Part shown: one piece after another, positions 14,295-56,157 of the stretch
How positions within the stretch are numbered: the first letter of the stretch is position 1
Layout: the number at the start of each line of letters is the position of its first letter
DNA from: an uncultured Gemmatimonadales bacterium
GTDB lineage: Bacteria; Gemmatimonadota; Gemmatimonadetes; Gemmatimonadales; GWC2-71-9
Direction of reading: 5' to 3'
DNA length: 64,000 nucleotides
Assembly (NCBI GenBank): GCA_963798915.1
Contig: CAWCVB010000002.1
Span: 192,001-256,000, forward strand
Made by a program: the position numbers and the translations under genes
The notes under the pieces: generated by a model
Seen by the model: only the letters and a program-made list of their open reading frames with translations
What the model was told of the DNA's origin: nothing
The model's database searches: none

Positions 14295-14337
14295 AGAAAC
14301 GAAGGCCGGGCCCCGGCAGTATCGCCAGGGCCCGGCC
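14295..14337 (-). terminator. Rho-independent terminator after the HYR lipoprotein gene
   Basis: Minus-strand stem GGCCGGGCCCTGGC-GATACT-GCCGGGGCCCGGCC followed by TTCGTTTCT. Confidence 0.7.
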
Positions 14338-14360
14338 CGAACTGCGCTGGGAGGACGAGG

Positions 14361-15806: not shown

Positions 15807-15976
15807 GACTGGACTCTCCACCTTCAGATGGCCGGCAATGCGCGTACCGGCGCGCCCCCGGCATTGACGGGGTCACGTGAATGCTGATGTCGGTCGCCAC
15901 GCATGTCGCAGCGCGGCCCGGGGCTTACTGGACGGGAAGTCGGTCGTTCGTGGTACGGCGTGAGGCTGTCATGAAG

Positions 15977-15993
15977 TGCATGCGATGTGCCAA
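15977..15993 (-). promoter_or_regulatory. Candidate sigma-54 (-24/-12) promoter for the HYR lipoprotein
   Basis: TTGGCACATCGCATGCA: GG-N10-GC spacing with the TGGCAC core, in an intergenic region oriented toward 15806. Confidence 0.5.
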
Positions 15994-16170
15994 CGAGGGG
16001 CGTGCGCCTGGCGGATATGGGCGGAGCGAGTCAAGCAACGGCACCGGGCCATCTTGCGCCGTGGCCGCGGAGGTCACTGGGCCCGCCGCCCGAGGCGGTG
16101 GTGCTGTGGTCAAGGCGCCACGACTCGCCCGTTCGTTGGGGCGGCGCCACGGCACCGGCGCCCCGGGTGG

Positions 16171-17801
16171 TCAGCCCGGCGTGAGGTCAGCCGTCGGAGC
16201 AAGGTCGGTGGCTTTCGCGCCTTCGAGGCCTGCTCGTACGCATAGGCCAGACTGATGAGCTGTCCCTCCGTCCATGCCGCTCCGATAAAGCTGAGGCCCA
16301 CGGGAAGCCCGAAGACCTGACCCATCGGGACGGTGATGCTGGGATAGCCGGAGACCGCCGCCGGGGTCGATGAGCTGCCGGCAAAATGATCGCCATTGAC
16401 CAGGTCGGTGGTCCAGGGCGGACCGCCAGTCGGTGCGACCAGGGCATCGAGCCGGTGCTTCGCGATGACGGCATCGAGTCCTTCGGTGCGGGCCAGCCGC
16501 CGGCAGTGGGCCAGCGCCTCGATATACTTGTCGTCCGTCAGGGATCCCGCCGCCTCCGCCTGCGCGAACGTCTCCTGGCCAAAGTAGGGCATCTCCTGAT
16601 CGGCATGCGCCACGTTGAAGGCGATGAGGTCGGCGAGTGACCGGGGAGCGCCGGCGCCCAGACCGGCCAGGTACCGGTTGATGCCGGCCTTGAACTCATA
16701 GAGCAGGACGGTGAATTCCGCGCTGCCGTAGTCGTCGGCATGGGGAATGTCAGCGGGGTCCACCACTTCCGCGCCGCTGGACTTGAGCAGCGCGATCGCC
16801 TCCTCAGCCAGCTTGTCCGTCTCGGCGCTGTAGCCAAAGAATCCCTCGCGGGCCACGCCGATCCGGGCGCCCTTGAGCGCATCGGCGTTGAGGAAGCGGG
16901 TGTAGTCGGCTTCGATATGGCCGGCCGAGCGGCTGGTGGCGGCGTCGGCCGCATCCGCGCCGGCCATGACGCCGAGCAGGATCGCCGCATCCGTCACGCT
17001 GCGGCACATGGGACCGGCCGTGTCCTGCGTCTCGGAGATGGGGATGATGCCGCTTCGTGAGACCAGCCCGACGGTCGGCTTGATGCCGACCAGTGCATTG
17101 TGGCTGGAGGGGCAGACGATGGATCCATCCGTCTCCGTACCGATGCCGATGGCACTCAGGTTGGCGGCGACAGCGACGCCAGTACCGGAACTGGAACCAC
17201 AGGGGTTGCGGTCGAGCGCGTAGGGACTCCGGGTCTGTCCGCCGCGCCCGCTCCAGCCGCTGGTGGAATGCGAGGAGCGGAAGTTGGCCCACTCGGAGAG
17301 GTTGGTCTTCCCCAGGATGATGGCGCCGGCCGCACGGAGGCGGCGAACGATGAATGCGTCGGCTGGTGGGACGGCGCCTACCAGTGCGAGCGAGCCCGCC
17401 GTCGTCTGCATCCGGTCCCGGGTGGCGATGTTGTCCTTGATCACGATGGGAATCCCATGCAACGGGCCGCGCACCTTGCCGGCTTTGCGTGCTGCATCAG
17501 CCGCGCGGGCCAGCGCTTCGGCCTCGGGATTGATTTCGATGACCGACCGGAGCGCCGGCCCCTTCCGGTCGAGCGACGCGATGCGATCCAGATAGAACCG
17601 GCAGATTTGCAGCGAGGTGTAGCGGCCGCTTGCCATGGCCGCCTGAAATTGGGGAACAGACCACTCCAGGACGGGCAGGGCGGGCAAGGCGGGCGGGGCG
17701 GGCAGGACACGATGAAGGGGCCCCATGACGAGACCCGTGGCGACGATGGAGGCGCCGGTTTCGACAAACTGGCGTCGGGAGAAGTCGTGGTTGCGGGTCA
17801 T
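16171..17801 (-). CDS. Amidase (amidase signature family) with Tat signal; apparent 1-nt frameshift near 16201
   Basis: ATG 17801 after GGAGG; SRRQFV; IKDN, GKTNLSEWAN, GSSSG, GTETDGSI. Adding one base gives ..RKPPTFAPTADLTPG* ending at 16171; as read it runs to 16110. Confidence 0.9.
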
Positions 17802-17868
17802 GCTACCTCCATGCTGGCGGGGAGCCTGCGTGATGTTCTGCCGCCCTCTCGACTCGCCGGACCCATCG

Positions 17869-18731
17869 TCACCCGGCCGGCAGCGGCGCGCGTGCCGCAA
17901 TCAGGGTGACGTTGTCGGTGCCGCTCCGCGCTGAAGCGCCAGCTCGAGCAGCGACCGGCAGAGCTGCTCGGACGAGGTCATCTGCTCGATCTGCTGCTTG
18001 ATCTCGGCGTTACTCACATGCTTGGTGAGGCCATCGGTGGCCAGCAGGATGACGCAGCCGCGGGGAATCTCGATCCGGCTCACCACCGGCACCGCCTCGT
18101 CCCCGCCGATGGCGCTCGCGAGGATATGGCTGAAGGGTGACTTCTCGAGACGGTCGGCCGGCATGACGCCCTGGTCCACCAGCCCCTGGGCAATGGTCTG
18201 ATCGCGGGTCATCTGGGTGAGCTCGCCATCCCAGTACCGGTAGCAGCGGCTGTCGCCCACCTGGGTGACATACATCCACGGGAAGACCGCGACGGCGAGC
18301 GTCAACGTCGTGGCCATTCTGGCACCGGGGTCCCCCGCCTGCTTCTCCCGCACCGCCGCATGCGCCTCCAGCGCCGCAGCTGTCAACGCCTCGTAGAACT
18401 CCGTGTCGGACGCGGCGCCGGCGGCGTGGTAGGATCGCAGCGACGAAGCGACATAATGCGTGACGGTAGCCAGGGCGAGCCGGCTGGCCTCGCCGCCTCC
18501 TGCGCCGCTGCCAACACCATCAGCCACCAGCATGTAAGTGGCGATGCGTTCGCCGCGGAGCGGGAGGGCATCTGCATCCGGCAGGCTGGTGCCGTGCACC
18601 ACCACCTGGGGATGGACGGTGCACACCATGAAGTGGTCGTGGTTGGCCTTGCGGACCAGACCGACGTGCGTAATGCCGAACAGGTCCAGCTCCACATCCT
18701 TCGGCCGAACCCACTGCAACTCAGATGACAT
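17869..18731 (-). CDS. PP2C/PPM-family Ser/Thr phosphatase; apparent frameshift near 17924
   Basis: ATG 18731 after GGAGG; VADGVG, VGDSRCY, TRDQT, LATDGL. The final GTDNVTLI motif lies in the adjacent frame and ends at TGA 17869. Confidence 0.9.
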
Positions 18732-37608: not shown

Positions 37609-40245
37609 CTACCACTGGGCGACCCACACATCGAGGGTCGGCACGTTGGTGCGCACGGCCATGCGAAGGCCGTCGTTGGAGAATGACACCCCCGCGGCAA
37701 ACGGGATCGGGAAGTCGCTCCCCCGCCGCAAGGCACCGGTGGCCGGGTCGAGTCGATAGAATCCCGCCGAGGCGACGGTCTCGGAGATGACCAGCTCGAC
37801 CGAGCCGTCGGGCATCCAGTGCAATCCGGGAACGAAGTCGAACACGGCGCGGAGGACGGCCGTGCCTTCGGCGGCGCCGGGCGGGACGCGGAAGACCACC
37901 ACCGAGTCGCCGACCGGATAGTTGAATCCCCAGCCGATGAGGCCGAAGCCCCACGGGGAGTCCTCGACTTCGATGACCCGGAGCGGCGGAATGCGCACGG
38001 TCCGGATCTCCCCGGATGGTGGACGAATCGCGAGTGAGGCCGGAGCGTCGGCGAATTGCCAGGCGAGTCCACCATCGGCCATCACCTCGAGCCCGGTGAT
38101 GGGGGCGCTGTCGGGAAATGTCCCCTGGGCACGCCGGCTGCCGTCGGTCAGTTCCAGCGAGGAAATCCTGATATTCGCTCCGTCACGGTGCAGCAGGACC
38201 ATCGCAGATCCGTCGACCGTGCGCGAACGATCGACCACGTCGGGAACGGGTGCGCCAAGATTCCGCTCCGGGCCGCCGGCGAACGGCTGCACGGCGAACT
38301 GCACCACCGGCATCCCCTGGCCCGAGGCCGATGTGCGAATCAGGATCACCGATTCCCCGTCGCTGCCCATCAGGACCGAGAGCTGTCCGGTCGCGGCGGC
38401 CACCTGCCGGGCTACCACCCCGGCGTCGGCGATCGTCCGCCGGGAAACCGCAACCGCGCTCGCTTGGTAGGTCCCCGCGAGGTAGGCGATGCCGCCCGCG
38501 GAGATGGTCAGGAGCTCCATGGGGATCGACGAGAGGACCACTTGCCGTTCGCGGCTGAACCGGCCGGCATCGTCGAGCCGGTAGGCAGCGATCGTGAGCA
38601 GCCCGCTGCCGCCGGAATCGGCCGTGGCCACCACGAATTCATCGGGGCGCCGGAATCCCGCGGATCGCACGCGCGGGAGTGACATCGAATCCCTGGCCAC
38701 GCCGCGGCGATCGAAGACGATGAGCTGGCCCGGCGACCCGCTGGCACCGATCACGATCCAGCGACCATCCGGCGAGGACCTCCAGGCGAACGCCGACGCA
38801 CCCTGACGCTCGATGATGAGGGAATCACCCCGGCTCGGATCGATCGACGTCGTGGCACGAAACGCGAGCCGCCCCGGCGCCAGCTCATCGGCGATCAGCA
38901 GGGAGTCGCCGCCCGCGATCGAACTCACGGCGCTGCCGGGAATGAGGCGCGGGCTCGCGCCGCCCAGGGCAGGCACCAGGTAGTACCCGATCGAGCCGTG
39001 CTCGGGCAGGCCGACGAACAGCAGATTGCGACCGTCGACGGTCCAGGCAACGTCATAGACTGCCGCGAGGTTGCCCACCGTCCGCAGGGTGCCCGAGCCG
39101 ACGACGTCCTGCACCACCAGGGCATAGGTACAGCGGCCGTTCGCACCACACTCCCGGTTGGCGTAGGCCACGCGCTGGCCGTCGGGCGAGAGCGCCACGG
39201 CACCCTCGGCGGTCCCCGAGACGGTCACCTGTCGGCGAGGTGCATTGAGGATCACCGGCGCGCTCGACGGCCGCAGCACACGCCAACCGATCGCGGCCAC
39301 GGCGACCACGGCGACACCGGCGAGAGCTGGCACCAGCCACCGCCGCCGGCCGGGCGCCGCCCGCCAGCCCGCGATCGGCCGGGTGGCCGTCGGCGTGATG
39401 CCCGTGCTTGGCGTGGCCTGCCCCTCGAGCAGGTGGAGGAGTTCCTCGGCGTGCTGGTACCGATCGGCAGGACGCTTCGCGAGACAGCGCATCACGATCT
39501 GTTCGAGTGGCGGCGCGATGGCGCTTCGGCGTCGGGCAACCGGCTCCGGCGCCTCGGTGACCTGCGCGGCGAGTACCTGCTGTGGCGTGGCGGCCACGAA
39601 CGGCGGGCGTCCGGTGAGCATCTCGTACGCCACCACGCCAAGCGAATAGATGTCGGACCGATGATCTACGTGCGGATCGGCGGAGGCCTGTTCGGGCGAC
39701 ATGTAGGTGGGCGTGCCGACCGCCACGCCGAGTGTCGTGATGGTGTTCCGGCCGGTGGCTTCGGAGATGGCCTTGGCCACCCCGAAGTCGGTGACCAGCG
39801 CGTGGCGCCCCGACATCATGATGTTGTCCGGCTTCACGTCGCGATGGACCACCCCCATCTGATGGGCGTGGGCCAGCGCATCGGCCACCTCCACCAGGAG
39901 TCGCACGGCCTCGTGCACCGGCAACTCCCCCTCGCGCGCCAGCCGCTCACGGAGCGATTGCCCCGGCACGTAGGGCATGACGTAGTAGAGGAAGCCGTCG
40001 GCGGCGCCGGAATCGAGCAGTGGCAGGATATGGGGATGTTGGAGCTGGGCGGCGATCTCGATCTCGCGCAGGAACCGGGTCGATCCCATCGACGCGGCGA
40101 GGTCTTCACGCAGGACCTTGATCGCCACTTTGCGATGGTGCTTGAGGTCCTCCGCCAGGTAGACGGTGGCCATGCCGCCCTGCCCGAGTTCGCGCTCGAT
40201 GCGGTAGCGGTCGGCGAGGGCTCCCCTGAGCGAATCGATGCTCAT
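37609..40245 (-). CDS. K10: Ser/Thr kinase-TM-divergent beta-propeller
   Basis: HRDVKPDN, DFG, GTPTYMSPEQ; TM WLVPALAGVAVVAVAAIGW; SPDG-like blades. Confidence 0.93.
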   Translation of the reverse strand: MSIDSLRGALADRYRIERELGQGGMATVYLAEDLKHHRKVAIKVLREDLAASMGSTRFLREIEIAAQLQHPHILPLLDSGAADGFLYYVMPYVPGQSLRERLAREGELPVHEAVRLLVEVADALAHAHQMGVVHRDVKPDNIMMSGRHALVTDFGVAKAISEATGRNTITTLGVAVGTPTYMSPEQASADPHVDHRSDIYSLGVVAYEMLTGRPPFVAATPQQVLAAQVTEAPEPVARRRSAIAPPLEQIVMRCLAKRPADRYQHAEELLHLLEGQATPSTGITPTATRPIAGWRAAPGRRRWLVPALAGVAVVAVAAIGWRVLRPSSAPVILNAPRRQVTVSGTAEGAVALSPDGQRVAYANRECGANGRCTYALVVQDVVGSGTLRTVGNLAAVYDVAWTVDGRNLLFVGLPEHGSIGYYLVPALGGASPRLIPGSAVSSIAGGDSLLIADELAPGRLAFRATTSIDPSRGDSLIIERQGASAFAWRSSPDGRWIVIGASGSPGQLIVFDRRGVARDSMSLPRVRSAGFRRPDEFVVATADSGGSGLLTIAAYRLDDAGRFSRERQVVLSSIPMELLTISAGGIAYLAGTYQASAVAVSRRTIADAGVVARQVAAATGQLSVLMGSDGESVILIRTSASGQGMPVVQFAVQPFAGGPERNLGAPVPDVVDRSRTVDGSAMVLLHRDGANIRISSLELTDGSRRAQGTFPDSAPITGLEVMADGGLAWQFADAPASLAIRPPSGEIRTVRIPPLRVIEVEDSPWGFGLIGWGFNYPVGDSVVVFRVPPGAAEGTAVLRAVFDFVPGLHWMPDGSVELVISETVASAGFYRLDPATGALRRGSDFPIPFAAGVSFSNDGLRMAVRTNVPTLDVWVAQW

Positions 40246-40304
40246 GCGCCGACCCCGTCGGGAAACCGAGTCGAAGGGCTTGTCCTGAGCCGTTCCAGGC
40301 TCAT
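40242..40304 (-). pseudogene. Kinase-start relic mini-ORF MSLERLRTSPSTRFPDGVGA (20 aa)
   Basis: First 28 nt match the K9 start at 24 positions; ATGA overlaps at both ends. Confidence 0.55.
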
Positions 40305-40358
40305 CGCGAATGCCTGTCGCGCGGAAAAGCCGAAGGGGCGGTGTTGCGGCGGTCGAGC
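40277..40358. repeat. Degenerate 82-nt direct repeat, copy 2 (copy 1 at 42990-43071)
   Basis: Gapless minus-strand alignment: GCTCGACCG-N8-CCGCCCCTTCGGC ... ATGASCCTGGAMCGSCTCAGGRCAAGCC. Confidence 0.7.
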
Positions 40359-40393
40359 GCGACTGCCGTGAGCGCAGCGGAAGAGTCGTTCAC
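40301..40393 (-). CDS. Bridging mini-ORF MNDSSAALTAVALDRRNTAPSAFPRDRHSR (30 aa)
   Basis: GTGA overlap with the K9 stop; ATGA overlap with the next mini-ORF. Confidence 0.35.
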   Translation of the reverse strand: MNDSSAALTAVALDRRNTAPSAFPRDRHSR

Positions 40394-43017
40394 CGCTTTT
40401 CCCCGTGCGGTGCGGCGCGTGTCACCAGCCAGATATTCGCCTCGATCTGCTGGGCGCCATAGTAGATCGTGCGACCATCGGGCGCCGCCGCGATGTCGCC
40501 GTACTGGTCGGGCGGATGGGGAAGTGTCACGGCGATTTCGTGCCGCTCGAGCGTCATGATGTCCTGGATCATCAGCGCTCCGCTCTTGGTGAAGTACACC
40601 ACCCGCCGAAAGCCTGGCAGCCACGCGAGGTCGTAGCCCCGTGCGTCGGTGCTCAGCTGGCGCAGGTGACCGGTCGCCACTTCAAACAGGGCGCTGCCCC
40701 GCAATTCGCCCGACGGCATCACGATGGCGCCAGTCAACCAGCGTCCATCGTGCGACCAGTAGCTGGGCTGGAGGCTCCCGCCCCCGATGTTGAGATCCTT
40801 GATCTCCGTGCCAGTCCTCTCGGTGATCGGCCATGGTGCTGATCCGATTGTGGCACCTCGCTGGACATGGCCAATCACCAGGCGCTGGCCGTCCGGGGCG
40901 AACATCGGGAAGTAGCCCCCAGTGGGGATATCGGTGAGGCGCGTCCGGCCGCTGCCGTCGAGCCGAATCGACCAGCCGTCGTACTTCCCGCCGGAATTGG
41001 AAAAGAACGTGACCGCCTCGTTGTCCGGGGTGAAGCGCGGAAACCAGTCGCGCGCATCATCGTCGGTGAGGCGCGTCAGGCCACTCCCGTCGGGATGCAT
41101 GATGAAGATGTCCTGCTGCCGGTCCGGTGAGTTGAACAGCGCGATCCACTTTCCGTCCGGTGACACGTCGGTCGGGGTGAGAATGCCGGTGCGATGCTGA
41201 AGCAGCGTCACGGCCCCGGCCTTGCCCGTGACCGGGTCGAATGCGATGGCGGCCGGGTTCACCGATTCGATCTTGGCGCGAAACACGAGTGACATGCCGT
41301 CCGTCGACAGATGCGGCAGGTCCATGGCAACATCGACTCCGGACACGACGGGTTCGGGATTGCCGGTGGCGCGCCCCGACGCTTCGTTCATGGGAATCCG
41401 CCAGATGCCCATGGCGCCGCCGCGATCGCTCCCGAAATAGAGATACTTCCCGTCCGGTGACCAGACCGGTGCCCAGTCGACCGCTACATCATTCGTCACC
41501 TTGACGCGTGCGCCGCCGGCCGCGGGAATTGTCTGAAGATCGCGTTGCCCGTTGCTGCTCGTCCAGAAGGCAATCCGCGCTCCCGATGGCGACCACGCGG
41601 GCTGATACGCGTCGCCGGCCCCCAGGGAATCCAGTTGCTGCGGCGCGCCGCCAGACACGTCGACCGTCCACAAGCCCCCCGAATTCGACGTACTGTACGG
41701 CGAGTTTACTTCTTCGGAGCCGAACACGATGCGCCGGCCGTCGGGCGACCACGCCGGATTGGCGCCGAACGTGGTCAGCCGCCGAGCCGACTCGCCCGTG
41801 GCGCCCACCACGAAGATGCCGCCGCCCTGCTGATTGTAGGCGATCTGCTTTCCGTCGGGCGAGTACGCGGGCCAGACCTCGTCGTGCGTCGAATCACCCG
41901 CCACCAGCACCGGATTGCGCCCGCCGACCCGCTGCACGAAGATGTCCCAGGTGCCACGCGCATTGCTTGCGTACGCGAACGATTCGCCATCCGGGGAGAG
42001 ACTGGGACTGGTTTCCACGCCCGAGGCGTCGGTGAGTTGCGTAAAGGCCGACCATCGCGCTTCCGGCGTGCGAGTCAGGTGACCGAGCCACCAGCCGCCG
42101 ATGGCGGCGAGTGCTGCGACCATCGCGATTCCAGCGACGGGAATCGAGAAGCGGCGCCTCGCGTCTCGCGTCTCGGGTCTCGCCTCTCTCCCTTCCTGTT
42201 GCAGCGCCTCCGCAAACTTCGCGGCACTGGCAAACCGGTCGGCCGGCAACTTGGCGAGCGCCGTGAGCACCGCCGCTTCAATGTGAGATGGAACGGTGTC
42301 GCGCACCGTGCTGATGGGAGAAGGCTTCTCGGTCAGCACCTTCGCCACGATCGCCTGCACGCTGGATCCGCTGAACGGCGGATCGCCGGCGAGCATTTCA
42401 TAGGTGACGGCGCCCAGCGCGTAGATGTCGCTCCGCGCGTCGATAGCGCGTTCACCCATCGCCTGTTCGGGCGACATGTATTGCGGGGTGCCAAGGGACA
42501 GGCCGGTCTGCGTCATCCGCTGGCCGCCGGCGGTTGCCACGGCGAGCGCGATACCGAAGTCGGCGACCAGCGCATGGCCGCCCTGCAGCAAGATGTTCTC
42601 GGGCTTGATGTCGCGATGGACAATGCCGATGGAATGGGCGCTTCCCAGGGCATCGGCGACTTCGCGGGCGATGAGCACTGCATCGCCAATCGGCAACTGA
42701 CGCTCGCGCTCGAGACGGGTGCGAAGCGTCTCGCCGGTAACGTACGGCATGACATAGTAGAGCAGCCCGTTGGCCTCGCCCGAGTCCAGCAGCGGCAGGA
42801 TGTGCGGATGCTGCAGCTTCGCGGTCGTCCTGATCTCGGTCAGGAAGCGCTCGCCACCAAGTGCGGCGCCGAGATCGGGATGCAGCACCTTGACGGCCAC
42901 CTGGCGGTCGTGCTTGATGTCGTGCGCCAGGTACACCGTCGCCATCCCGCCCGCACCCAGTTCCCGCTCGATGCGGTAGCGGTCAGCCAGGCTTGCCCTG
43001 AGGCGGTCCAGGGTCAT
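40390..43017 (-). CDS. K9: Ser/Thr kinase-TM-PD40 beta-propeller (regular WSPDG repeats)
   Basis: Intact kinase motifs; TM; QLT..SPSLSPDG, PAYSPDG, PAWSPDG, PVWSPDG. Confidence 0.95.
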   Translation of the reverse strand: MTLDRLRASLADRYRIERELGAGGMATVYLAHDIKHDRQVAVKVLHPDLGAALGGERFLTEIRTTAKLQHPHILPLLDSGEANGLLYYVMPYVTGETLRTRLERERQLPIGDAVLIAREVADALGSAHSIGIVHRDIKPENILLQGGHALVADFGIALAVATAGGQRMTQTGLSLGTPQYMSPEQAMGERAIDARSDIYALGAVTYEMLAGDPPFSGSSVQAIVAKVLTEKPSPISTVRDTVPSHIEAAVLTALAKLPADRFASAAKFAEALQQEGREARPETRDARRRFSIPVAGIAMVAALAAIGGWWLGHLTRTPEARWSAFTQLTDASGVETSPSLSPDGESFAYASNARGTWDIFVQRVGGRNPVLVAGDSTHDEVWPAYSPDGKQIAYNQQGGGIFVVGATGESARRLTTFGANPAWSPDGRRIVFGSEEVNSPYSTSNSGGLWTVDVSGGAPQQLDSLGAGDAYQPAWSPSGARIAFWTSSNGQRDLQTIPAAGGARVKVTNDVAVDWAPVWSPDGKYLYFGSDRGGAMGIWRIPMNEASGRATGNPEPVVSGVDVAMDLPHLSTDGMSLVFRAKIESVNPAAIAFDPVTGKAGAVTLLQHRTGILTPTDVSPDGKWIALFNSPDRQQDIFIMHPDGSGLTRLTDDDARDWFPRFTPDNEAVTFFSNSGGKYDGWSIRLDGSGRTRLTDIPTGGYFPMFAPDGQRLVIGHVQRGATIGSAPWPITERTGTEIKDLNIGGGSLQPSYWSHDGRWLTGAIVMPSGELRGSALFEVATGHLRQLSTDARGYDLAWLPGFRRVVYFTKSGALMIQDIMTLERHEIAVTLPHPPDQYGDIAAAPDGRTIYYGAQQIEANIWLVTRAAPHGEKR
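42157..42191. repeat. Heptamer tandem repeat (TCTCGCG-like x5) in the K9 kinase-TM linker
   Basis: cctcgcg tctcgcg tctcggg tctcgcc tctctcc. Confidence 0.7.
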
Positions 43018-43071
43018 CAGGTCAATCTCCGAGACGCGTGTGCCGAAGGGGCGGCGGCAAGACGGTCGAGC
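42990..43071. repeat. Degenerate 82-nt direct repeat, copy 1 (K9 leader and start)
   Basis: Colinear with 40277-40358; GCCCCT begins 35 nt before the ATG in both copies. Confidence 0.7.
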
Positions 43072-43076
43072 CTCAT
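43017..43076 (-). CDS. Bridging mini-ORF MRLDRLAAAPSAHASRRLT (19 aa), resembles a kinase start
   Basis: ATGA overlap with the K8 stop; TGATG overlap with the K9 start; MRLDRLAAA resembles MTPDRLTAA (K1) and MSMDRLTAA (K15). Confidence 0.45.
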   Translation of the reverse strand: MRLDRLAAAPSAHASRRLT

Positions 43077-45762
43077 CTGGCTCCGCCGCTTTCGGCCACC
43101 CGGCGCCGGAACTCCGTGATCCAGTTGGGCGAAACTACCAGCTGGTAGTCGTTCTGCTCGGGAATCGCCGTCAGGAAGCGCCGGCCATCGCGGGTCGGCT
43201 GATAGAGGGCCGAAAAGAACTGTGCATCGAGCCCGGCGCTGGGAAAGGAGGCCATGAGCGTGTCGCGGCCGAGCAATGTGATGACGGGCCTGGTCGCCAG
43301 GCGCGCCTCGACGAGCGCCGAACCGCTCAGATAGTAGAGCCGGGTGCCATCGGCCGACCACATCGGGGCCACGCCACCGCCGACGGAAACCTGGAGCTTG
43401 GTGGAAGGATCGGGATAGGACCGGAGATAGATCTCGTCCTGCCCCGACTCGTCATCCACCAGGGCAACCCATTTTCCGTCGGGAGAGAACTCCGGCGCGT
43501 GGAAGCTGGCGTGGGACACAAGGTAGTCGTGCACCGCCGGGGTCGAGTCCAGTATCAGGCGCTGCAGGCTCCATACGTCCCCGGGAATCACCGAGAGCAG
43601 CACCGAGCGGCCGTCCGGCGACATGACTGCCCCCCCGGCAGCGAAGGGCAGGTCGACGAGCTTCTCCGGCGCAACCCCGCCGGATGCCCGCTGTCGCCAC
43701 AGCGTGTTCCCGGTTTCGCCGGTCGAGAAATAGAGAACGTCGGATCCGTCCGGAGTCCACGAAACGGAGGTGACGGTATTGACCGTCGTCAGCCGGGAAA
43801 AGGTGCCCAGTGACAGGTCTTCGATCCAGATATCGCTCTGACCATGGTCGCCAGTCACCACGGCGATGCGGCGTTCATCGGGGGAAAGCCGCAGGGCTTG
43901 GTACTGGCCGGCCGACGGCCCCACGGCACGGGGCGGACCGCCCGGGGCCACCCACGAGATCCTGCCGGTCGCGCTCCCGATCGAGGTTATCAGCGCGCCA
44001 CCGCGGGAAATGTAGATCTCCGAATTCCCGTTCAGACCGGGCACAACCGGAACGGGGTCGTGCACCGGAATCGGTGATCCGACCACCTTTCCGGCCCCGG
44101 CGTCCAACCGGACCGACATGACGGCGCCGTCGGCCTTGAGGTACACCAGCCACCCGTCGAGGATTGCCAGGGGCCGGATTGCCTTGATGCCAAGCCGGGT
44201 GACCGCCCCGTCCTTGAGGGAGGCGACTGCCAGCTGGGCCGAGGCGAGGCCACCGAACCAGACGGTAAAGACCGCGTAGCTGCCGTCCGGGGTACTGAGC
44301 GGCCAGAGATGATTCCGCTCTCCCGTGGTGGTGTCCACCTGCGTCAGGGCGGCCGGCGTTCCGCCGGCAGCACTCACCCGGGATAGCCCGGCATATGACC
44401 CCCATGTTCCCAACAGAATCTCGTTGTTGACGGTCCAGTCGGCACCGTTGTACGCGCCGGCATCCGCGATTGTCACCGGCGCGCTGCCGTCGAGCCTGAC
44501 CTTGCGCTCCTTGCCCTGCACTTCGAACCCCACCCACTGCCCGTCGGGCGAGAAGTACGGCTGGGCCGCCCCGATGGTACCGGGAATCTCACGCGCCTCC
44601 AGTTGGTTGGTGCGCAAGAAGTACAGCCGGGTCGTAAGGGAGGCGCCGCCGGAGTTGACGGGGGAGACGCTGTAGACCACGGTGCCGCCGTCGGGCGAGG
44701 TGGCGGCGGGCCATGGGTAGCTGCGAACCGGCCTGGTGCTGTCGGTGGTGGTCAGCACGTACTTGATGGGTGGGACCACCAGGGGGACCGGCCGCGGCCG
44801 GAGCAGCATCGCCACACCACCGAGCGCCAGCACCGCGATCGCCGCCACCCCGATGAACAGCGGGTCCCGCAGGCGCGAGCGCCCGGTGGGAGCTGCAAGC
44901 CCACCGGCCGGCATTGCTCTGCTCGCGGCAGGTGCCAGCTCCGGCCGGTTCAGCGCATCGCTGAACTCCGCCGCGCTGGCGAAACGGTCGGCCGGCAGCT
45001 TCTCAAGCGCCGTCAGCACCGCCGTCTCCACATGCGCGGGGATGGTGTGCCGCTGCGGCAGCATCGGCCGGGGCGACTCCGTCACCACCTTGGCCACGAT
45101 CGCCTGCGCCGTGCTTCCGGTGAACGGCGGATCCCCCACCAGCATCTCGTAGGTCATCGCCCCCAGGGCGTAGACGTCCGAGCGCGCCGTGATCTCCCGC
45201 TCCCCCATCGCCTGCTCCGGGCTCATGTAATGCGGCGTCCCCAGGCTCATCCCCGTCTCCGTCATCCGGGTCCCGCCCGCACTGCTCACCGCCAGCGCGA
45301 TCCCGAAATCGGCCACCAGCGCGCTGCCGTCATGCAGCATCACGTTCTCGGGCTTGATGTCCCGGTGGATGATCCCGTGCCGGTGGGCATAGTCCAGCGC
45401 CCCCGCCACTTCCGTCGCGATCCGCACCGCGTCGGCCACCGGCAACTGCTTCTCCCGGTTGAGCCGGTCGCGCAGCGACTCGCCCTCGACGTAGGGCATG
45501 ACGAAGAAGGCGGTGCCGGTGACCTCGCCCGAGTCAATCAGCCCCAGTATGTGCGGATGCTGCAGCGCCGCGATGGTGCGAATCTCCCGCACGAACCGCT
45601 CGGCCCCAATCACCGCCGCCAGCTCCGGCCGCAGCACCTTGATGGCCACGTTGCGGCCATGCTTCAGGTCCTCGGCCAGGTAGACGGTGGCCATGCCGCC
45701 CTGCCCGAGCTCCCGCTCGATGCGGTAGCGGTCAGCCAGGGCGGTGCGGAGACGCTCGACCG

Positions 45763-45766
<4 letters not shown>
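43073..45766 (-). CDS. K8: Ser/Thr kinase-TM-beta-propeller
   Basis: GTG 45766 overlaps the K7 stop; intact kinase motifs, TM, SPDG repeats, VSPNW end. Confidence 0.94.
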
Positions 45767-48049: not shown

Positions 48050-50469
48050 CTACGCGCCCGATCGGGAAATTGACGCGCCCGGCTTGAGTCCCAGCCGCCG
48101 CACCAGCGCCTGGTACCGCGGCTCGCCGTGGAGGGGCCGGAACCTGGGATCCACACTCACCAAGCACATCCACACATTGCCGGAGGCATAGCCGCGTTCG
48201 AGCCAGTCCAGTGCCTTGGAGCGTTCGCCCAGGGCGAGAAAGGCGGACGCCAGCCGGTACTCGTCCACGTAATGCGTCCTGCCGTAGGCAATCACGGTAG
48301 CCAGTTCGTGGCTGGCCTCGGCGGTGTCACCTGCGAGCGCGAGCGCCTGCGCCAGGACCATGCGATCGCGCATCCTGCCGGGCAACGCTTGCACCAGTGC
48401 GCGCTGCTCGCGCACCGCCTCCCCGTAGTCCCCGCGCGCCAGCAGGAGATCGGCGTAACACCGCGACCCGGCGCCCAGTTCGCGGCGCCGACGGCAATAT
48501 GTTTCGGCCTCATCGGCGCCGCCGGCACCAAGCGCGATCTGCGTCGCGTGTTCCAGCACCAGCGGGGAGAGCGGATCGAAGCGTACTGCGCGGGCAACAT
48601 GCGCGCGGGCGGAGTCGGGTTGTCCCAGGCCCCACAGCTGCCAGGCATAGCCAATGTTCGCCTCCGCGTTGGTCGAGTCGAGAGAGAGCGCGATGCGGAA
48701 TTCGCGCTCCCCTGCCACACAGTCATTCTGATACGAACTCAAGAAGGTCCCGATCAGGCCATATGATTCCGCCGACTGCGGATCGAGTGCCGCGGCGCGC
48801 CGCGCCGCTGGCAGCATGTGCTGCAGCGCCTCGTGGGGCGCCACATAGTCGTCCGCCAGCGCATACCATGCCCGGGCCAGTGCATTCCATGCGCCGGCGT
48901 AGCTGGAATCGAGGGCGATCGCCTGCTCCGCGAGCGCCACAGCATGGCGCACGGCGCTCTCGCTCCCCGCCCGATCGCTGAGATAGAGTGAGCGCAGCAC
49001 GAGATCGTGCGCCGGCACGCTGCGCGTGCCCGGTGTGGCCAGCTGCTTGACGGTGGCGGGGGAGAGCGCGATATCGAGCGCCTTGGTAATACCGGTCGCG
49101 ATCGAATCGTGGAGCGAGAAGATGCTGGATTCGTCCTGGTCGTAGCTCGCCGACCAGAGCACTGCGTCATGCGCTGGATCGTCCAGCGCGACCGTAATTC
49201 GTAGCCGGCCATTGGCTCGCCCGATGGTGCCCTCGACGATACCCGACACGCCGAGCAGCTTCGCCGCGTCGCGCGCCGTCCTGCCGCGCAAGGCGAACGC
49301 CGAGGAGCGAGGCACCACCGCGAGTCCCGGAATGCGGGCAAGCGCGGAGGTGAGATCGGTCGCCATGCCGTCGGCGAGGTAAGCGTTGGCGCTGTCGCCG
49401 CCAAGCGATTCGAAGGGCAGCACCGCGAGATGACGAGTCGCGCCAGACGATGAGGTCAGTGTGTCGCCCGGGGTGCGGCCCAGGGGGAGCAGCCGCCAGG
49501 CAAGGAGCCCCAGTGCCACCAGGGCCGCAGCCCCGACCGCCAGCCGCCAGGTCGGGCGGCGGCGACCATGGTCGCGCGGCAGTTGATCCAGCGCCGCGAC
49601 CAGCTCAGCCGCTGATTGCGGACGGTCCGCCGGAGGCTTGGCGAGGCAGCGCATCACCAGCGCGGCGAGGCCGGCCGGAATGGCGGCGCGGGCACGGGTG
49701 ACCGATTCCGGCGGGGTCGTCAGCTGCGCGGCGATCAGCCGCTGCGCAGTCAGCCCGGTAAACGGTGGCCGGCCGGTCAGCATTTCATACCCGACGACCC
49801 CGAACGAATAGATGTCGGCGCGCGCATCAACCTGAGGGTCGGCGGCGGCCTGCTCTGGCGCCATGTAGGCCGGGGTGCCGAGGGACACTCCAGCTGGGTC
49901 AGCGCCGTTCCGGCTCCCGTCGCACTCGCGGCACCACTCGCCGCCTGCGCGATCCCGAAGTCCATCACCATCGCATGGCCGTCGCTGATGAGGATGTTTT
50001 CAGGCTTGATATCGCGATGAACAATGCCGCTCTGGTGCGCCTTGGCCAGCGCATCGGCGACTTCACGCAGGAGCCGGACTGCCACGTCGATCGGGAGTGC
50101 ACCTTCCCTCGCCAGCTTGTCACGGAGCGACTCGCCAGCGATGTAGGGCATAACGTAGTAGAGAACGGTCGAGGGTCGAGCGTCGAGCGCGTGACCCTCG
50201 ACCATCGACCCTTGACCCTCGACGCTTCCCGAATCAAACAGCGGCAGAATATGCGGGTGCTGCAGCCGGGCAGTCACTTCGATTTCCCGCAGGAACCGCT
50301 CGGCGCCAAGCACCGCGGCGAGCTCGGGCTTGAGGACCTTGATCGCCACCTTCCGGTTGTGTCGCAGGTCCTGGGCGAGGTAGACCGTGGCCATGCCACC
50401 CTGGCCCAGCTCGCGCTCGATGCGGTAGCGATCTGTAAGAGCGGCTTCCAGACGAGACAGCTCGGCCAT
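48050..50469 (-). CDS. K6: Ser/Thr kinase-TM-TolB-like-TPR; apparent 1-nt deletion near 49890
   Basis: ATG 50469 after AAGGAG; restoring one G gives LTQLGVSLGTPAYMAPEQ, joining ORFs 49777-50469 and 48050-49888; LAVLPF, TPR. Confidence 0.9.
50167..50223. repeat. Palindromic heptamer repeat cassette inserted in frame in the K6 kinase domain
   Basis: ggtcgag ggtcgag cgtcgag cgcgt gaccctc gaccatc gaccctt gaccctc gac; the two arms are reverse complements. Confidence 0.8.
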
Positions 50470-50485
50470 ATCGTGCTCCTTGCCT

Positions 50486-50512
50486 GGCGGTACGGCGGTA
50501 CGGCGGTACGGC
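50486..50512. repeat. Octamer tandem repeat (GGCGGTAC)x3 plus a partial unit, just upstream of the K6 RBS
   Basis: ggcggtac ggcggtac ggcggtac ggc. Confidence 0.85.
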
Positions 50513-50523
50513 CCGAAGATGAC

Positions 50524-50558
50524 GTCATTGCGAGGCGGCGCCAGCCGCCGTGGAGTCT
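50524..50558. repeat. Possible REP-like half element with GC hairpin after K5
   Basis: GTCATTGCGA-GGCGGCgccaGCCGCC-GTGGAGTCT; resembles GTCATTGCGAG-type palindromic elements recalled from other bacteria. Confidence 0.4.
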
Positions 50559-53193
50559 ACGGCGTTGGCTGAGACTGCCTTCCCAGCAGCTGCTGCCAGT
50601 TGAGCAGCAGGGTTGCCGACGAGCTGCCTTCCACCCGCTGCCGCACCAGAAATTGCCGGCCGTCCGCGCCCGCATCGTACGTGGTGGTGGCCTGGGCGCC
50701 TCCGCGTTGGTCCGCGAAGAGGCGCGCACTCCAGCGCGGTGAGCGGAAGAGCGCCTCCGGGTTTCCGACCTGAAGGCCAGGATCGGCCCTCACCGGCACT
50801 TGCATGATCGAACCGTCCGGCCCCTGAAAGAACAACGCGCGCCCGTCGCGACGCCAGCGCGGCAGCCCTCCTCCCGCAACCGAGACTCTGGTGACGGCGC
50901 CGGTCCGCCGGAACGGGCGTAGGTAGACCTCCAGCTCGCCGGTTTCATCGGAGACGTAGGCCAACCATTTCCCGTCAGGGGATACAGCGCCTGCCGATGC
51001 GGTTCCGCTCACGGACACCAGCGGTTCCAGTTTGCCGGTTGCGGTGTTCAAGGTCCAGAGAGCGCCATGCGGTGCGTTGCTCGGGGCCGCCAGCAGGATG
51101 AGATACCGGCCATCGGAGGTCCAATCGGTGGGCACAAACAGGTTCCCTTCGCCGGTCTGGTCCACGAGCGTACTATCCTTTCCGGTTTCGAGGTTCACCA
51201 GGATCGTCTTCCCGGTCTTCCCGTCAATCGTGGCGATCAGGGAATCGCCAGGCGCCCAGACCGGAAACCAGAAGCTGCCGTTCGGCCGCACCGGAATGGT
51301 CGTATGACGGCCGAGATCATAGACCCAGAGACCGAAACCGGCGAGCGCGATGGCGGGTCTGCTCCATGCCTCCCGCAGGGTCCAGGTTCCTTGCAGGGAG
51401 ATGCTGTCTCGAATGGCACCCCTGGAATCGACGATCAGCGGCCCCTCATCCAGCCGTGCCGTCTGGAGATAGACCAGCCCGGTCCGGGCCACGGCATACG
51501 ATGGGACCAGGCCGGCGGTCCGGATTCCTCTCGCCAGAGTGACCGCTTCTTCTCCTCGCGGAACCGCGTGTTTCAGGTCGATGTGCTGCGCGACGATATC
51601 AGCCCCTGTGCGGCCCTGGCGGCTGTACACTGCCACCCCCGGGGAGAGCAATTGGACGAATTGCGCCCCGGTGAGAAAGGTGCGCGGAGTGGCCCCCTTG
51701 GCATCGCTCCACACCAGATCGCCCGAGGTGTTCCCCGCGAACCGGCGCCCGTCGGGAAACCAGGCCGGCCAGGAGAGGGTCCGGGAGGAATCCTGCCATG
51801 CGCCACCGACAGGAATACAGTCCCCGCCGGAGACGGGCACGAGCATGGGATGACCGAGGTGGGTGAAAATGATCGTACCCTGGCTGCTCCAGGACCCTCC
51901 CAGGTCGGCCGCCGGGCAGAGGACCCGGGACACGCGGCCGCCGAGATCGAAACGCATGAGCGACCCCCGGGCAAAGAATCCGATCGCCCGGCCATCGGGT
52001 GCCCAGAAGGGCGCCTCGGCGCCGGCGGTGCCGGAGAGGGAGTCCACCTGCCCGGACCGCAGATCGCGCAGCCAGAGCTTCCGCTCCCCGGCCGCACCCA
52101 GGCCGACGAAAGCGAGCCGGGTGCCATCGGGAGACAGGGCGGCAAAGTGGAACTCCGCGAACTCCACACCTCGCGGCGGTTCCAGCTCGACTTGGAATAC
52201 CGTCGCCCTGCTCTCGCGCGGGTGCAAGATCCAGGATGCCGCCGCGATTACCAGGGCAAGGCCGGCGAGAAGCCAGGGCAGGCTGCGGAACACCTGAGCA
52301 GGAATGGGCCGCCCCTTTCCCGCCACGGAGCCCGGCATCGCTCCCGTGGCTGTGGGCAAGCGGTAGCTGGACTCGCTCAGCGCCGCCGCGAATTCCGCCG
52401 CGCTGGCAAAGCGATCCGCCGGCAGCTTCTCCAGCGCCGTGAGTACCGCGGCTTCCACGTGCGGGGGAATCGTATGCCGCTGCGGCAGCATCGGCCGGGG
52501 CGTCTCCGTCACCACCTTCGCCACGATGGCCTGCGCCGTGCTCCCGGTGAAGGGCGGATCGCCCACCAGCATCTCGTAGGTCATCGCCCCCAGCGCGTAC
52601 ACGTCGCTCCGCGCCGTGATCTCCCGCTCCCCCATCGCCTGCTCGGGGCTCATGTAGTGCGGCGTCCCCAGGCTCATCCCCGTCTCGGTCATCCGGGTTC
52701 CGCCGCCGCTGCTCACCGCCAGCGCGATGCCGAAATCGGCCACCAGCGCGCTGCCGTCGTGCAGCATCACGTTCTCGGGTTTGATGTCGCGGTGGATCAC
52801 ACCGTGCCGGTGAGCATAGTCCAGCGCCGAGGCAACCTCGGTCGCGATCCGCACCGCGTCGGCGATCGGCAGCTGCTTCTCCCGCAGCAGCCGGTCGCGC
52901 AATGACTCCCCCTCGACGAACGGCATCACGTAGTACGCCGTCCCCTGCACCTCGCCCGAGTCAATCAGCCCCAGGATATGGGGATGCTGCAGCGCCGCGA
53001 TGGTGCGGATCTCCCGCACGAACCGCTCCGCCCCGATCACCGCCGCCAGCTCCGGCCGCAGCACCTTGATGGCCACCTTGCGGGCGTGCTTCAGGTCCTC
53101 GGCCAGGTAGACCGTGGCCATCCCGCCCGCACCGAGTTCGTGCTCGATGGTATAGCGGTCACCCAGGGCAGACTTGAGCGTGTCGAGGGTCAC
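50557..53193 (-). CDS. K5: Ser/Thr kinase-TM-beta-propeller
   Basis: GTG start overlapping the K4 stop; intact kinase motifs, TM, SPDG repeats, LLLNW end. Confidence 0.95.
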   Translation of the reverse strand: MTLDTLKSALGDRYTIEHELGAGGMATVYLAEDLKHARKVAIKVLRPELAAVIGAERFVREIRTIAALQHPHILGLIDSGEVQGTAYYVMPFVEGESLRDRLLREKQLPIADAVRIATEVASALDYAHRHGVIHRDIKPENVMLHDGSALVADFGIALAVSSGGGTRMTETGMSLGTPHYMSPEQAMGEREITARSDVYALGAMTYEMLVGDPPFTGSTAQAIVAKVVTETPRPMLPQRHTIPPHVEAAVLTALEKLPADRFASAAEFAAALSESSYRLPTATGAMPGSVAGKGRPIPAQVFRSLPWLLAGLALVIAAASWILHPRESRATVFQVELEPPRGVEFAEFHFAALSPDGTRLAFVGLGAAGERKLWLRDLRSGQVDSLSGTAGAEAPFWAPDGRAIGFFARGSLMRFDLGGRVSRVLCPAADLGGSWSSQGTIIFTHLGHPMLVPVSGGDCIPVGGAWQDSSRTLSWPAWFPDGRRFAGNTSGDLVWSDAKGATPRTFLTGAQFVQLLSPGVAVYSRQGRTGADIVAQHIDLKHAVPRGEEAVTLARGIRTAGLVPSYAVARTGLVYLQTARLDEGPLIVDSRGAIRDSISLQGTWTLREAWSRPAIALAGFGLWVYDLGRHTTIPVRPNGSFWFPVWAPGDSLIATIDGKTGKTILVNLETGKDSTLVDQTGEGNLFVPTDWTSDGRYLILLAAPSNAPHGALWTLNTATGKLEPLVSVSGTASAGAVSPDGKWLAYVSDETGELEVYLRPFRRTGAVTRVSVAGGGLPRWRRDGRALFFQGPDGSIMQVPVRADPGLQVGNPEALFRSPRWSARLFADQRGGAQATTTYDAGADGRQFLVRQRVEGSSSATLLLNWQQLLGRQSQPTP

Positions 53194-56157
53194 GGGGCGA
53201 GTCCTTTTTTCGGGGCACTGTCGGCGCCGACCTGCTCCGACACCACACGCCTGGCCTCGGCGATGATCGCCTGCTGCCCGGTCGTTGACGGGTCAACCGT
53301 GGCCAGGAAGCGGGAGAGCTGCAACACAGCGTCCGCGTGATTGCCGGCCTCCTCCAGTGCCATGCCGCGCTCGAATTGCACCAGCGGGCCGAGCGCGAAC
53401 CGGAGGCCCCAGGTCCTGGGCGTGTTGAACTGCGCGTCGATCCACATCAGGTACCGCTCGACCTCGGCGGGCTGCCCACGATTGCGAAGGGCACGGGCAA
53501 TCACGAAACGATTGACGATCTCCGCTGCGAGGAGATACTTCCCCTCTCGCATCATGGCATCGCTGATCGCGCGAACGGAGTCGGCCGCGCCCTCGGCGCC
53601 CTCCTTGACGAGCCACTCGGCCCGGAGGGATGCTGCTGCATGGGCCGCGACCGGACTGGATTCCTTGCGCAGGGCCCCCCGCGCGCGGTCGACGCCCGAC
53701 GCATCGGCGGTCACGACCGCCAGCAGTCCCTCGAGCCACTGCAGTTCAATTCGGTCGGTGGCCTGCTTGTCGACGTCTGGCATGGCCCGGGCCCGATCAA
53801 GAGCCTCAGCGGCCATGGCGGGATCGACCATCCCGAGCCAGGCTCCGACGGTCGCGAGGCGCGCGGTGCTGAGTCGGTCGCTGACCGAACCGCTGGAGGC
53901 CTCGTACTGGCGCAGTGCCGCCAACCCGCCGGTCCAGTCTCCCCGGGCGATGCGCAGCACTCCCTCGCCAAACCGTGAACTGGTCAGGACCTCTCCCTGG
54001 TAGCGTCCGTCGCGCTGGGCTTCCTCGACCAGCGCCAGTCGCTCGGGAATCCGCCCATCGATGAAGGTCAACAGGCCGCTGAGCACCGGCTGGCGGCCTC
54101 CGGCAGGCAGGTCGGCATAGGTTCGGACCGCCGCGTCACCCCAACCATCGGGCATCGGCTGGCCGGGCGTGACGAGCGAGCGGCTGATCGCGGCCGTGAT
54201 CGCCAGCAACTCTCCGAAGAACCCGTGTGAGGCAGCTCGCTCCCCGCTGGAAGGACTGCGCCGCCTCTGCCGACTTCCCGAGTGCTTCCTCCACAGCGCC
54301 CTCGTGCATCCAGACGTCGGCATTGTCCGGCGTGAGTCGGGCCAGCCGGGTGAGCACCGGGAGCGCCCCGGCCAGGTCGATCCCATAGACCGGGCCGGAG
54401 TGCACGATGCCGTCCACGCCGGACATCAGGATGGGCGGATAGTCGGGGTAGCGCCGGATCAGCTCCTGCCAGCGGGCCACCTGCTCGGGCAGCGGCCCGG
54501 TCTGCTGGGTCGCCTCCAGCCAGAGCCGCTCGCGGTCCGGCAACCGGCTGGCGAGTGCCAGCAGGCGGGCATGGGCAGCAGAGTCGGGTTCCTGGAGACT
54601 CCAGGTCCGCGCGGCATCGTAGCGCAGATAAGCCTGCACAAACGTTGAGTCGAGCTCGAACGCGCGGCGATACTCGGCCATCGCCGCGTCCACGTCGAGT
54701 TCCTGGAAGTGTCGCTCCCCGTCGAGGAAGTGCCTGAGCGCCGCAAACGATGAAGTGGTGAGACCGGTGAGGACTGGCGACGGGGGTGCCCCGCCACGCC
54801 ACACCTGCCGCAGGACCTGCCACGTGAGGGAGTCCGTGAGCGCTGAGATATCCTCCGCCGGTGCCAGGGTGCTGGCCCGGGCGATCGCGGTGTCGTCTCC
54901 GACTCGATAGAGCGCTACCGCCGCCCGCACCTGTCCCGATTCGTGAATCAACGTTCCCGTGAGGACACTGCCGGCGCCGAGACGTGTCGCGATCGCGCGT
55001 GCCCGGTCGAGAGGGAGCGGCGAGGGGGCATTCCGGGTATTGAGCAGCAGGGTCGGCGCATCGACGGTGTGCAATTCGCCGACGCCGTCGAGGGTGGTGC
55101 TGAGGGTCACCACGAGGTCCTGGCCGAGCCGCGCCAGCGAACTGTCGGAGATCGCCGAGAGCGGCATGACCGCGATCGCGGAAGCGTCGCCGCTGATGGA
55201 TGTCGCTGAGGTGTCCTTGCGCCCCAGGACCCACCAGGCGCCGGCGGCCAGGAGCGCCACCGCGGCGCCCGTGAAAGCGATCAGGCGCCCCCGACCACCG
55301 GCGCGGGATGCAGCCGGGCCGCTGGACGTTGTGGCGGTCTTGAGCCGCTCGGCGACCACGGCGGCGGAGGGCCGGGCGGTCGGATCCTTGGCGAGGCAGG
55401 CGGTCACCAGGTCGGCGAGGGCGCGCGGAGTGTCGTCCCGGATGCTGGCGATCGCCGGCGCGGGGGTGGTGACATGGGCGGCGACAACCTGCTGGAGGTT
55501 GCTGCCGGTGAACGGCGGCTGACCGGCCAGCATCTCGAACAGCACGCAGCCCAGGGCGTAGATGTCCGCCTTCCCGTCGATCACCGAGGACGCCGTCGCC
55601 TGTTCGGGGCTCATGTACGCCGGCGTGCCCACGGCAAACCCCGCCTGCGTCATGGTGGTGCCACCGGCCGCGGTCAGGGCGCGGGCCACGCCGAAGTCGG
55701 CGAGGACGGCGTGCCCTTCCTGGAGCAGGATGTTCTCCGGCTTGATGTCGCGATGCACCACGCCCTCGCGATGCGAATAGGCGAGGGCATCGGCGATCTC
55801 GAGGGCCAGCGTCGCGGCGCGGTCCGGGGCGAGCCGGCCCTCCCTGGCCAGCAGCTCCCGCAAGGTCTCGCCGCGGACGTATGGGGCCACGTAGTAGAGC
55901 ATGCCGCCGGCGCTGTCGGAGTCGATCAGCGGCAGGATGTGCGGATGCTGCAGCCTGGCAATCGTGGTGATCTCCCGGACGAACCGCTCGCCCCCGATCG
56001 CGGCGGAGAGCTCCTCGTGCATCACCTTGATGGCGACCTGGCGATCGTGCTTGAGATCGTGGGCGAGGTAGACCGTGGCCATGCCACCCTGGCCCAGCTC
56101 CCGCTCGATGCGGTAGCGGTCGGCGAGGGCCGCCGTGAGGCGTTCGGTGATGGTCAT
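53190..56157 (-). CDS. K4: Ser/Thr kinase-TM-TolB-like-long helical/TPR tail; apparent frameshift near 54240
   Basis: Kinase, TM, IAVMPL and TPR in ORF 54136-56157; helical repeats continue in ORF 53190-54386, whose stop overlaps the K5 start. Confidence 0.85.

Follow-up and report, generated by a model that had tools for sequence, protein, structure and literature searches.

Probable relics of kinase gene starts, held in an unbroken stop-to-start chain, within a Ser/Thr kinase array of an uncultured Gemmatimonadales bacterium

The stretch analysed here (hereafter the window) comprises 64,000 nucleotides (nt) from an uncultured Gemmatimonadales bacterium (GenBank assembly GCA_963798915.1) and corresponds to C2:192001-256000, where C2 labels the contig coordinates; the features under study are the short gaps that flank a Ser/Thr kinase gene, K9, and three 59-nt units found in them. 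The genome is a 3.3-Mb metagenome-assembled genome (MAG) of 17 contigs, 84.8% complete, with 66-67% guanine plus cytosine (G+C). The MAG itself is Gemmatimonadaceae-like, and the relatives recovered with K9 were all titled Gemmatimonadaceae, Gemmatimonadales or Gemmatimonadota. Along its minus strand, the window carries Ser/Thr kinase genes in a row, each encoding about 880 amino acids (aa), with a Pkinase domain followed by PD40 beta-propeller repeats. A motif scan detected 18 of these genes in the window (18721-63834, minus strand) and 30 across C2:206-315 kb, with two more obtained from a profile search, and most neighbouring genes overlap by 4 nt at stop and start (ATGA or GTGA). The 5′ ends of the genes are highly alike across paralogs. 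Identity between paralogs is 50-89% in the kinase domain against 11-40% in the C-terminal (sensor) parts, and this far greater divergence of the C-terminal parts indicates an array that is old and diversified, not freshly amplified. The "accordion-like" gain and loss that the first-pass annotation had read from the gaps around K9 therefore overstates the tempo. The pairing of conserved kinase domains with divergent sensor parts also suggests a diversified sensor repertoire.

Chained mini-ORFs (short open reading frames, ORFs) whose stops and starts overlap those of their neighbours had been described in both gaps around K9, and they were found there at the coordinates given, as listed in Table 1. 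If each is taken to run from one start codon up to the following one, the three units U1, U2 and U3 are all exactly 59 nt long. The final A of the U1 stop (TGA, 43019-43017) is also the first base of the K9 start codon (TGATGA), while mini-ORF 2 opens with a GTG at 40393 that overlaps the K9 stop (GTGA) and closes with a TGA lying within the ATGA of U3. Stop-to-start overlaps thus link the upstream kinase, K9 and K8 in a chain without a break, all on the minus strand. No kinase domain follows U1, U2 or U3 in any frame before the next gene, and the three frames close at 19, 30 and 20 codons, respectively.

Table 1. Coordinates of the genes, units and mini-ORFs in and around the two K9 gaps, in window positions.
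Feature	Position	Strand	Description
Upstream Ser/Thr kinase paralog (K11)	43073-45766	minus	897 aa; Pkinase 2.5e-49, PD40 1.7e-14; TGA within the ATGA of U1
U1, 59-nt unit (43076-43018) with 19-codon mini-ORF	43017-43076	minus	Frame MRLDRLAAAPSAHASRRLT; from ATG 43076 to K9 ATG 43017
K9, intact kinase	40390-43017	minus	875 aa; Pkinase 3.1e-44; PD40 repeats 4.9e-36
Mini-ORF 2, 30 codons	40301-40393	minus	27-nt spacer plus unit U2
U2, 59-nt unit	40305-40363	minus	GTC in place of the start codon; copy of U1 with a shared 30-nt core
48-nt stretch (part of the spacer and U2 head) missing in the X1 contig	40337-40384	minus	In-frame difference
U3, 59-nt unit (40304-40246), 20-codon mini-ORF	40242-40304	minus	TGA within the ATGA of K8
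K8, intact kinase	37609-40245	minus	878 aa; most divergent paralog in the window; Pkinase 1.5e-53

The two gaps share sequence with each other. The first-pass annotation had reported an ungapped 82-nt repeat with 24/28 identity over its start segment, and our alignment of 43071-42990 with 40358-40277 reproduces both, with 54 of the 82 positions identical. The identity is unevenly laid out, at 24/30 in the first 30 positions, 6/24 in the middle 24 and 24/28 in the last 28. The first block is a 30-nt core (40329-40358 and 43042-43071, 80% identity) that was also reported independently by a repeat finder (family D5). A comparison with shuffled sequence had been proposed for this similarity, and it came out clearly in favour of the repeat: local alignment of the 59-nt gap with the 144-nt gap, with K9 coding sequence excluded, scored 18, whereas dinucleotide shuffles scored 8.8 +/- 1.5 with a maximum of 15, so that none of 1000 equalled the observed score. 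In addition, the 13-mer CCGCCCCTTCGGC occurs exactly twice in the 6.6 million positions of the 3.3-Mb genome, and both occurrences are here.

The unit starts were then compared with those of true kinase genes. A 27-nt start matrix was built from 11 other kinase starts, with K9 and K8 left out, and all 6,612,382 genome positions were scored. U3 ranked 14 and U1 ranked 16, and the top-scoring set consists of 13 true kinase starts, one further relic outside the window, U1 and U3, which makes U1 and U3 the best non-gene matches to the matrix genome-wide. With the start codon removed from the matrix they ranked 37 (U3) and 58 (U1). U2 scored 9.9 bits, a score reached by a fraction of 1.3e-4 of positions. 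With a matrix from all the kinases, the best positions in each gap fall exactly on the unit starts, namely 43076, 40363 and 40304. The first 28 nt of U3 agree with the K9 start at 24/28 positions, while the other 29 kinases reach at most 19/28, K8 included at 19/28, and the head of U1 shows 21/28 identity to the starts of two other paralogs. U1 also lies at the canonical start site behind the upstream kinase, with an ATGA overlap and a GGAG 4 nt before the ATG, whereas U2 and U3 follow mini-ORFs instead. It is well supported by these comparisons that each unit represents a decayed copy of the first ~9 codons of an array kinase gene. The start of mini-ORF 2 itself (40393) was considered as a separate relic of an 'MND...' kinase start and was rejected, having obtained -0.6 to 2.4 bits and a rank of 6,000-16,000.

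Since the U3 head is K9-like, the segment formed by U2 and the U3 head is a diverged duplicate of the segment formed by U1 and the first 28 nt of K9. The units are probably scars of rearrangement within this old row of about 30 tandem Ser/Thr kinase paralogs, and two routes to them are conceivable. A segment comprising the relic and K9 may have been duplicated and nearly all of the second gene body lost afterwards; alternatively, unequal exchange may have taken place between the start-like head of a relic and the true head of a gene, a route that would also account for the common 59-nt length and for the structure of U3, in which a K9-like head is joined in register to a U-like CCCTTCG signature. 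The gaps had been interpreted earlier as scars of duplicated and then deleted kinase cassettes. Of that interpretation, the kinase-start relics and the duplication of a unit together with the first 28 nt of K9 hold, while the full cassette between K9 and K8 gained no support, plausible though it may be that a whole kinase cassette formerly stood there. On balance, we consider it likely that the three 59-nt units are kinase-start relics, that is, scars of array rearrangement, whose preserved chain may let ribosomes reach K8.

Several results weigh against this interpretation. A search of 584 nt with nhmmer and an 87-nt start profile gave U1 at an expectation value (E) of 0.14 (0.9 bits) and missed U2 and U3, and neither U2 nor U3 was among the matches of a genome-wide start-profile search; nhmmer is too insensitive for pieces so short. 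The pairwise similarities of U1 with U3 and of U2 with U3 are not significant alone (equalled by 134-168 and 40-60 of 1000 shuffles, respectively), the U2-U3 tandem was undetected by Tandem Repeats Finder, and U1, U2 and U3 are not independent events. The middle block of the 82-nt repeat is at chance level, an outcome not expected of simple duplication and subsequent uniform decay, and no simple model accounts for these 24 nt. The last 31 nt of the units (the U tails) match neither the 5′ nor the 3′ ends of the kinases and score negatively against a family-wide matrix of the C-terminal NWFxEL motif. Chains of overlapping frames are, furthermore, partly to be expected by chance: overlapping starts are cheap because any non-C base ahead of a TGA creates a start codon, and among the short gaps (27-300 nt) of the junction survey described below only 7 of 19 are chained. 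The first-pass annotation had also proposed looking in related genomes for full kinases at these sites, and neither an extra kinase nor a U unit was found at the orthologous site in 30 relatives and metagenome contigs. In the 30 relatives, the DNA matches nearly all start at least ~27 nt inside K9, and the best of them (82%, G014) has plain GTGA/ATGA junctions.

As an origin for the U tails, kinase codons 8-29 and kinase 3′ ends were tried and rejected, with fractions of shuffles equalling the scores of 0.95, 0.38, 0.78, 0.72, 0.42 and 0.07. The lowest of these is the best tail case, the U3 tail against the NWFPEL-coding 3′ end of one paralog in the same frame.

Relics of the same kind were observed elsewhere in the array and in related genomes. 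Outside the window, a frame at C2:301237-301521 opens with MTMSVDRLTAALADRYRIER, then diverges, and ends after 95 codons in the ATGA of the next kinase; this relic contains a 29-nt piece that recurs at ~10 other sites. A 21-codon frame at C2:282695-282757, also outside the window, is a clearly decayed kinase start and likewise ends in the ATGA of the next kinase. A survey of 83 loci from relatives (1.10 Mb) with the start profile yielded a total of 224 matches. An in-frame catalytic loop comes after 197 of them and is missing after 27; several of the latter lie at contig ends, and about ten are true 5′ relics. These include a 40-codon relic closing in the ATGA of a true kinase (L038), a relic frame closing in the ATGA of a transporter gene (L014), relic frames that stop early (L043 and L076) and relics at array edges (L015, L052, L055, L071 and L084). 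In L092 (oriented 17521-17916), a kinase is cut in frame to its first 55 and last ~70 codons, with a GTGA overlap at both ends. This locus is a clear scar of a deleted cassette, which indicates that a mechanism of internal deletion exists in the kinase family. A pattern scan of metagenome contigs for the U core gave a single match, within an unrelated ORF that we take to be Sua5/TsaC-like, and the match was regarded as chance. Reads lacking K9 had been suggested as a further line of evidence; the joints seen in soil run X1 (for example 40221 to 43173) stand on 22-nt sides with 88% likeness and were not counted, being most likely the paralogs of other organisms.

The frames of the relics show a regular geometry. 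Each unit is 3n-1 nt long and has NTGA at both ends, so the relic frame terminates on the next start codon. The distance from a relic to the next start leaves a remainder of 2 on division by 3 in all five cases in this genome and in four of six close pairs in relatives; with U1-U3 counted as one event this becomes 7/9 (binomial ~0.008 against an expected one third), which is a rough and post hoc figure. The 3′ end of the 16S ribosomal RNA carries CCTCC, and the relic-free gaps of the window (n = 3) contain Shine-Dalgarno matches of 6-8 nt, against 3 nt only for mini-ORF 2, U3 and K8. No Shine-Dalgarno match longer than 3 nt lies upstream of the K8 ATG, while K9 has a GGAG 9 nt before its ATG, within the U1 tail. 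A 312-nt contig from soil run X1, ~91% identical, bridges the end of K9 to U3 and K8 (40385-40521 joined to 40336-40172) and so covers the K9-K8 gap, the U1 junction being covered by no contig. In the X1 strain, an in-frame difference makes the spacer 48 nt shorter. The mini-ORFs there count 14 and 20 codons, with the whole chain intact, and U3 differs by four substitutions, with no insertion or deletion (indel). Across the 91 nt that this contig alone covers (40246-40336) there are four differences, while for K9 coding sequence the counts are 14 over 137 nt and 38 over 315 nt.

These patterns suggest how the chain might act. Ribosomes finishing K9 would pass to K8, a gene lacking a Shine-Dalgarno motif of its own, by reinitiation through both mini-ORFs, and the mini-ORF peptides themselves would be without function; most likely, scars would persist only where the stop-to-start chain is kept. 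Because the frame pattern, the K8 start and the in-frame variant all fit, such a ribosome relay through relic frames is plausible, but the chance that it operates is in our view below even, as the unchained gaps count against it, and so does the weak Shine-Dalgarno contrast in relatives, where chained gaps have matches of 0-4 nt and unchained gaps of 0-5 nt. In its stop/start overlaps, the row from the upstream kinase to K8 agrees with a translationally coupled (termination-reinitiation) gene chain. Also tentative is the proposal that in Gemmatimonadales kinase arrays selection filters the scars of genes lost or rearranged, only frames that stop exactly on the next start persisting as obligatory relays for genes that, like K8, lack a Shine-Dalgarno motif; the array might then form one translational unit of dozens of genes whose stoichiometry is set by coupling.

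The strongest alternative accepts the units as real relics and regards the chained overlaps as a by-product of descent from ATGA junctions combined with high G+C, with neither selection nor a role in translation; it has a substantial chance of being right, though well under one half. The survey of 117 consecutive kinase pairs comprises seven with a broken upstream gene, 65 with direct overlap, 17 chained by ORFs (several of them real genes) and 28 unchained. Because 65 of the 110 kinase-kinase junctions overlap directly, the ATGA ends of the relics may simply be inherited, and frames of 20-30 codons readily stay open at this G+C content and are hence unremarkable. The 12 of 19 short gaps that are unchained, the early stops in L043 and L076, and the fact that three of the four U3 substitutions in the X1 strain alter the peptide point the same way. 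It is harder to reconcile such drift with the exact 59 nt kept in all three units, whose tails are near-saturated in divergence, or with the sole indel between strains being a multiple of three that leaves the chain intact. The missing Shine-Dalgarno motif at K8 where relic-free gaps possess one, the recurrent offset and the lower divergence of the X1 gap relative to K9 coding sequence likewise speak against it.

An unlikely alternative is the insertion of a hairpin repeat. A small dispersed element would have entered a kinase gene a few codons in, and the relay frame opened by the orphaned old start would run across the insert, now decayed, and terminate on a rebuilt start, so that the U tails, and perhaps the U1/U2 core, would be derived from the element. 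The architecture of old start, insert and new start agrees with this, and a hairpin family does exist in the genome, built as TTGCTTCG-(variable GC hairpin)-CCTCGCAATGAC; its core is matched 70 times (at most one mismatch), and the left arm is present in 42 of these cases. A partial copy of this element occurs in the K14-to-K13 gap of the array (~50523-50552; Smith-Waterman score 21, equalled by 0/200 shuffles; nhmmer 14.2 bits; covariance model 12 bits), and the 29-nt piece in the relic that begins at C2:301521 is likewise repeated in the genome. U2 resembles a long-form element copy (score 16.5, equalled by 1/200 shuffles), and U1 does so more weakly (14.0, 14/200). U3, by contrast, has no similarity to the element (its score was equalled by 141/200 shuffles), U1, U2 and U3 were all missed by nhmmer with the element profile, and a covariance model (R1), run without filters, gave no match in either gap up to E 10. 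The U tails, which were also tried as a dispersed repeat in their own right and rejected as such, have no other copy in the genome, giving only matches of 13-17 nt at E >= 0.047. Both invariant arms with a paired inner stem, the mark of the TTGCTTCG...CCTCGCAATGAC element, were not found in U1-U3. A target-site duplication at K8 is disfavoured because the U3 head copies the start of K9, not that of K8 (24/28 against 19/28). Insertion is retained as a minor rival because of the resemblance of U2, and weakly of U1, to the element, set against model searches that miss both gaps.

The dispersed element was observed at ~70 sites on most contigs (for example C1:164670, C3:129104 and C7:10236), with invariant arms TTGCTTCG and CTCGCAATGAC; its inner hairpin is variable with compensatory changes, and tandem repeats of 7-10 nt often follow it. 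It looks like a REP/MITE-type family. Pieces similar to it, of the form ...GGCCTCGCAATGACAAAAC..., fill gaps of the kinase array in the relatives L065, L070 and L090. In the K14-to-K13 gap (window 50470-50556), the partial copy consists of the CCTCGCAATGAC arm; after it come CCGTACCGC, a 9-nt unit repeated three times in tandem, and a strong Shine-Dalgarno motif.

It is very improbable that the conserved blocks represent a structured RNA or regulatory leader, attenuator or riboswitch-like, or functional micropeptides. The alternation of conserved, variable and conserved blocks along the 82-nt repeat would suit this reading, and the core GCCG-CCCCTT-CGGC, as read from the sequence, could fold as a short hairpin. 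Nevertheless, an Rfam search of 39900-43400 at E up to 1 gave no match, the folding z-scores (-1.55, -0.02, -0.64 and -0.26) are no more stable than those of shuffles, no fold is common to U1 and U2, no promoter-like or terminator-like site was found in the gaps, the differences between the U1 and U2 cores are mostly non-synonymous, and no homologous unit appeared among the relatives or metagenome contigs. Least credible of all is that the similarity arose by chance, which the shuffle test and the uniqueness of the 13-mer oppose, or that the junctions were created artificially when the MAG was assembled through recurring kinase 5′ ends, for although the MAG is fragmented and incomplete and those 5′ ends are highly alike, the units are identical to no other kinase start, and misassembly is unlikely because the independent X1 contig spans the K9 3′ end, U3 and the K8 5′ end.

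Other irregularities were noted in the array. A split kinase occupies window positions 48050-50469: the frame at 50469-49777 ends after 230 codons, and the activation-loop region resumes in another frame (ORF 48050-49888). It represents a pseudogene with a frameshift or else an error of assembly. A shorter kinase of 673 aa (54136-56157) is followed by a 398-aa ORF (53190-54386) with no Pfam match, which is linked to its neighbours via a 23-codon mini-ORF and GTGA overlaps. The linker of K9 between the kinase domain and the transmembrane stretch contains a 7-nt tandem repeat, GCGTCTC on the plus strand, in five copies (window 42154-42188).

The locus offers a testable case of a long, operon-like row of paralogs that tolerates gene loss and rearrangement without breaking downstream translation. 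If the frame bias (3n-1 lengths and in-frame indels) holds widely, non-coding relic frames would be selected for their reading-frame geometry alone, a constraint that gene callers and pseudogene models currently ignore. The relics further record earlier rearrangement in a very large repertoire of sensor kinases, ~30 tandem genes with conserved kinase domains and hypervariable outer domains. A literature search on Gemmatimonadetes kinase arrays retrieved no printed account of relic-derived relay frames.

In tandem arrays of paralogs, deletion or unequal exchange leaves gene remnants. Like such remnants, the units are 5′ pieces of array genes, cut short and situated between members that are intact, and L092 provides a parallel; they differ in that only ~9 codons are recognisable, and these occur in duplicated units of a uniform 59 nt with the stop/start chain kept in all. 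With respect to translation, the account of Huber et al. 2019 (PMC6728339), in the part that concerns this point, describes termination-reinitiation coupling at ATGA/TGATG overlaps for which Shine-Dalgarno motifs are not essential. As in that account, the genes and mini-ORFs from the upstream kinase to K8 are joined throughout by NTGA or TGATG overlaps, all on one strand; unlike the systems presented there, the partners of the predicted coupling here include three mini-ORFs that are derived from relics and are not genes. Passages of a 2025 review (PMC12548453) describe short upstream ORFs that deliver ribosomes, as well as MIRU-like mobile intergenic repeats. Like the latter, as characterised in those passages, the U units are tens of bases long, sometimes tandem and set in a row of same-strand genes, and their frames overlap the stop and start of the neighbours, so that downstream translation need not suffer. 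They differ from MIRU-like repeats in not being dispersed, with three copies at two sites and the 13-mer core nowhere else, and in having heads that come from the flanking gene family. Overall, the units combine two known kinds of feature, namely gene remnants and translational coupling.

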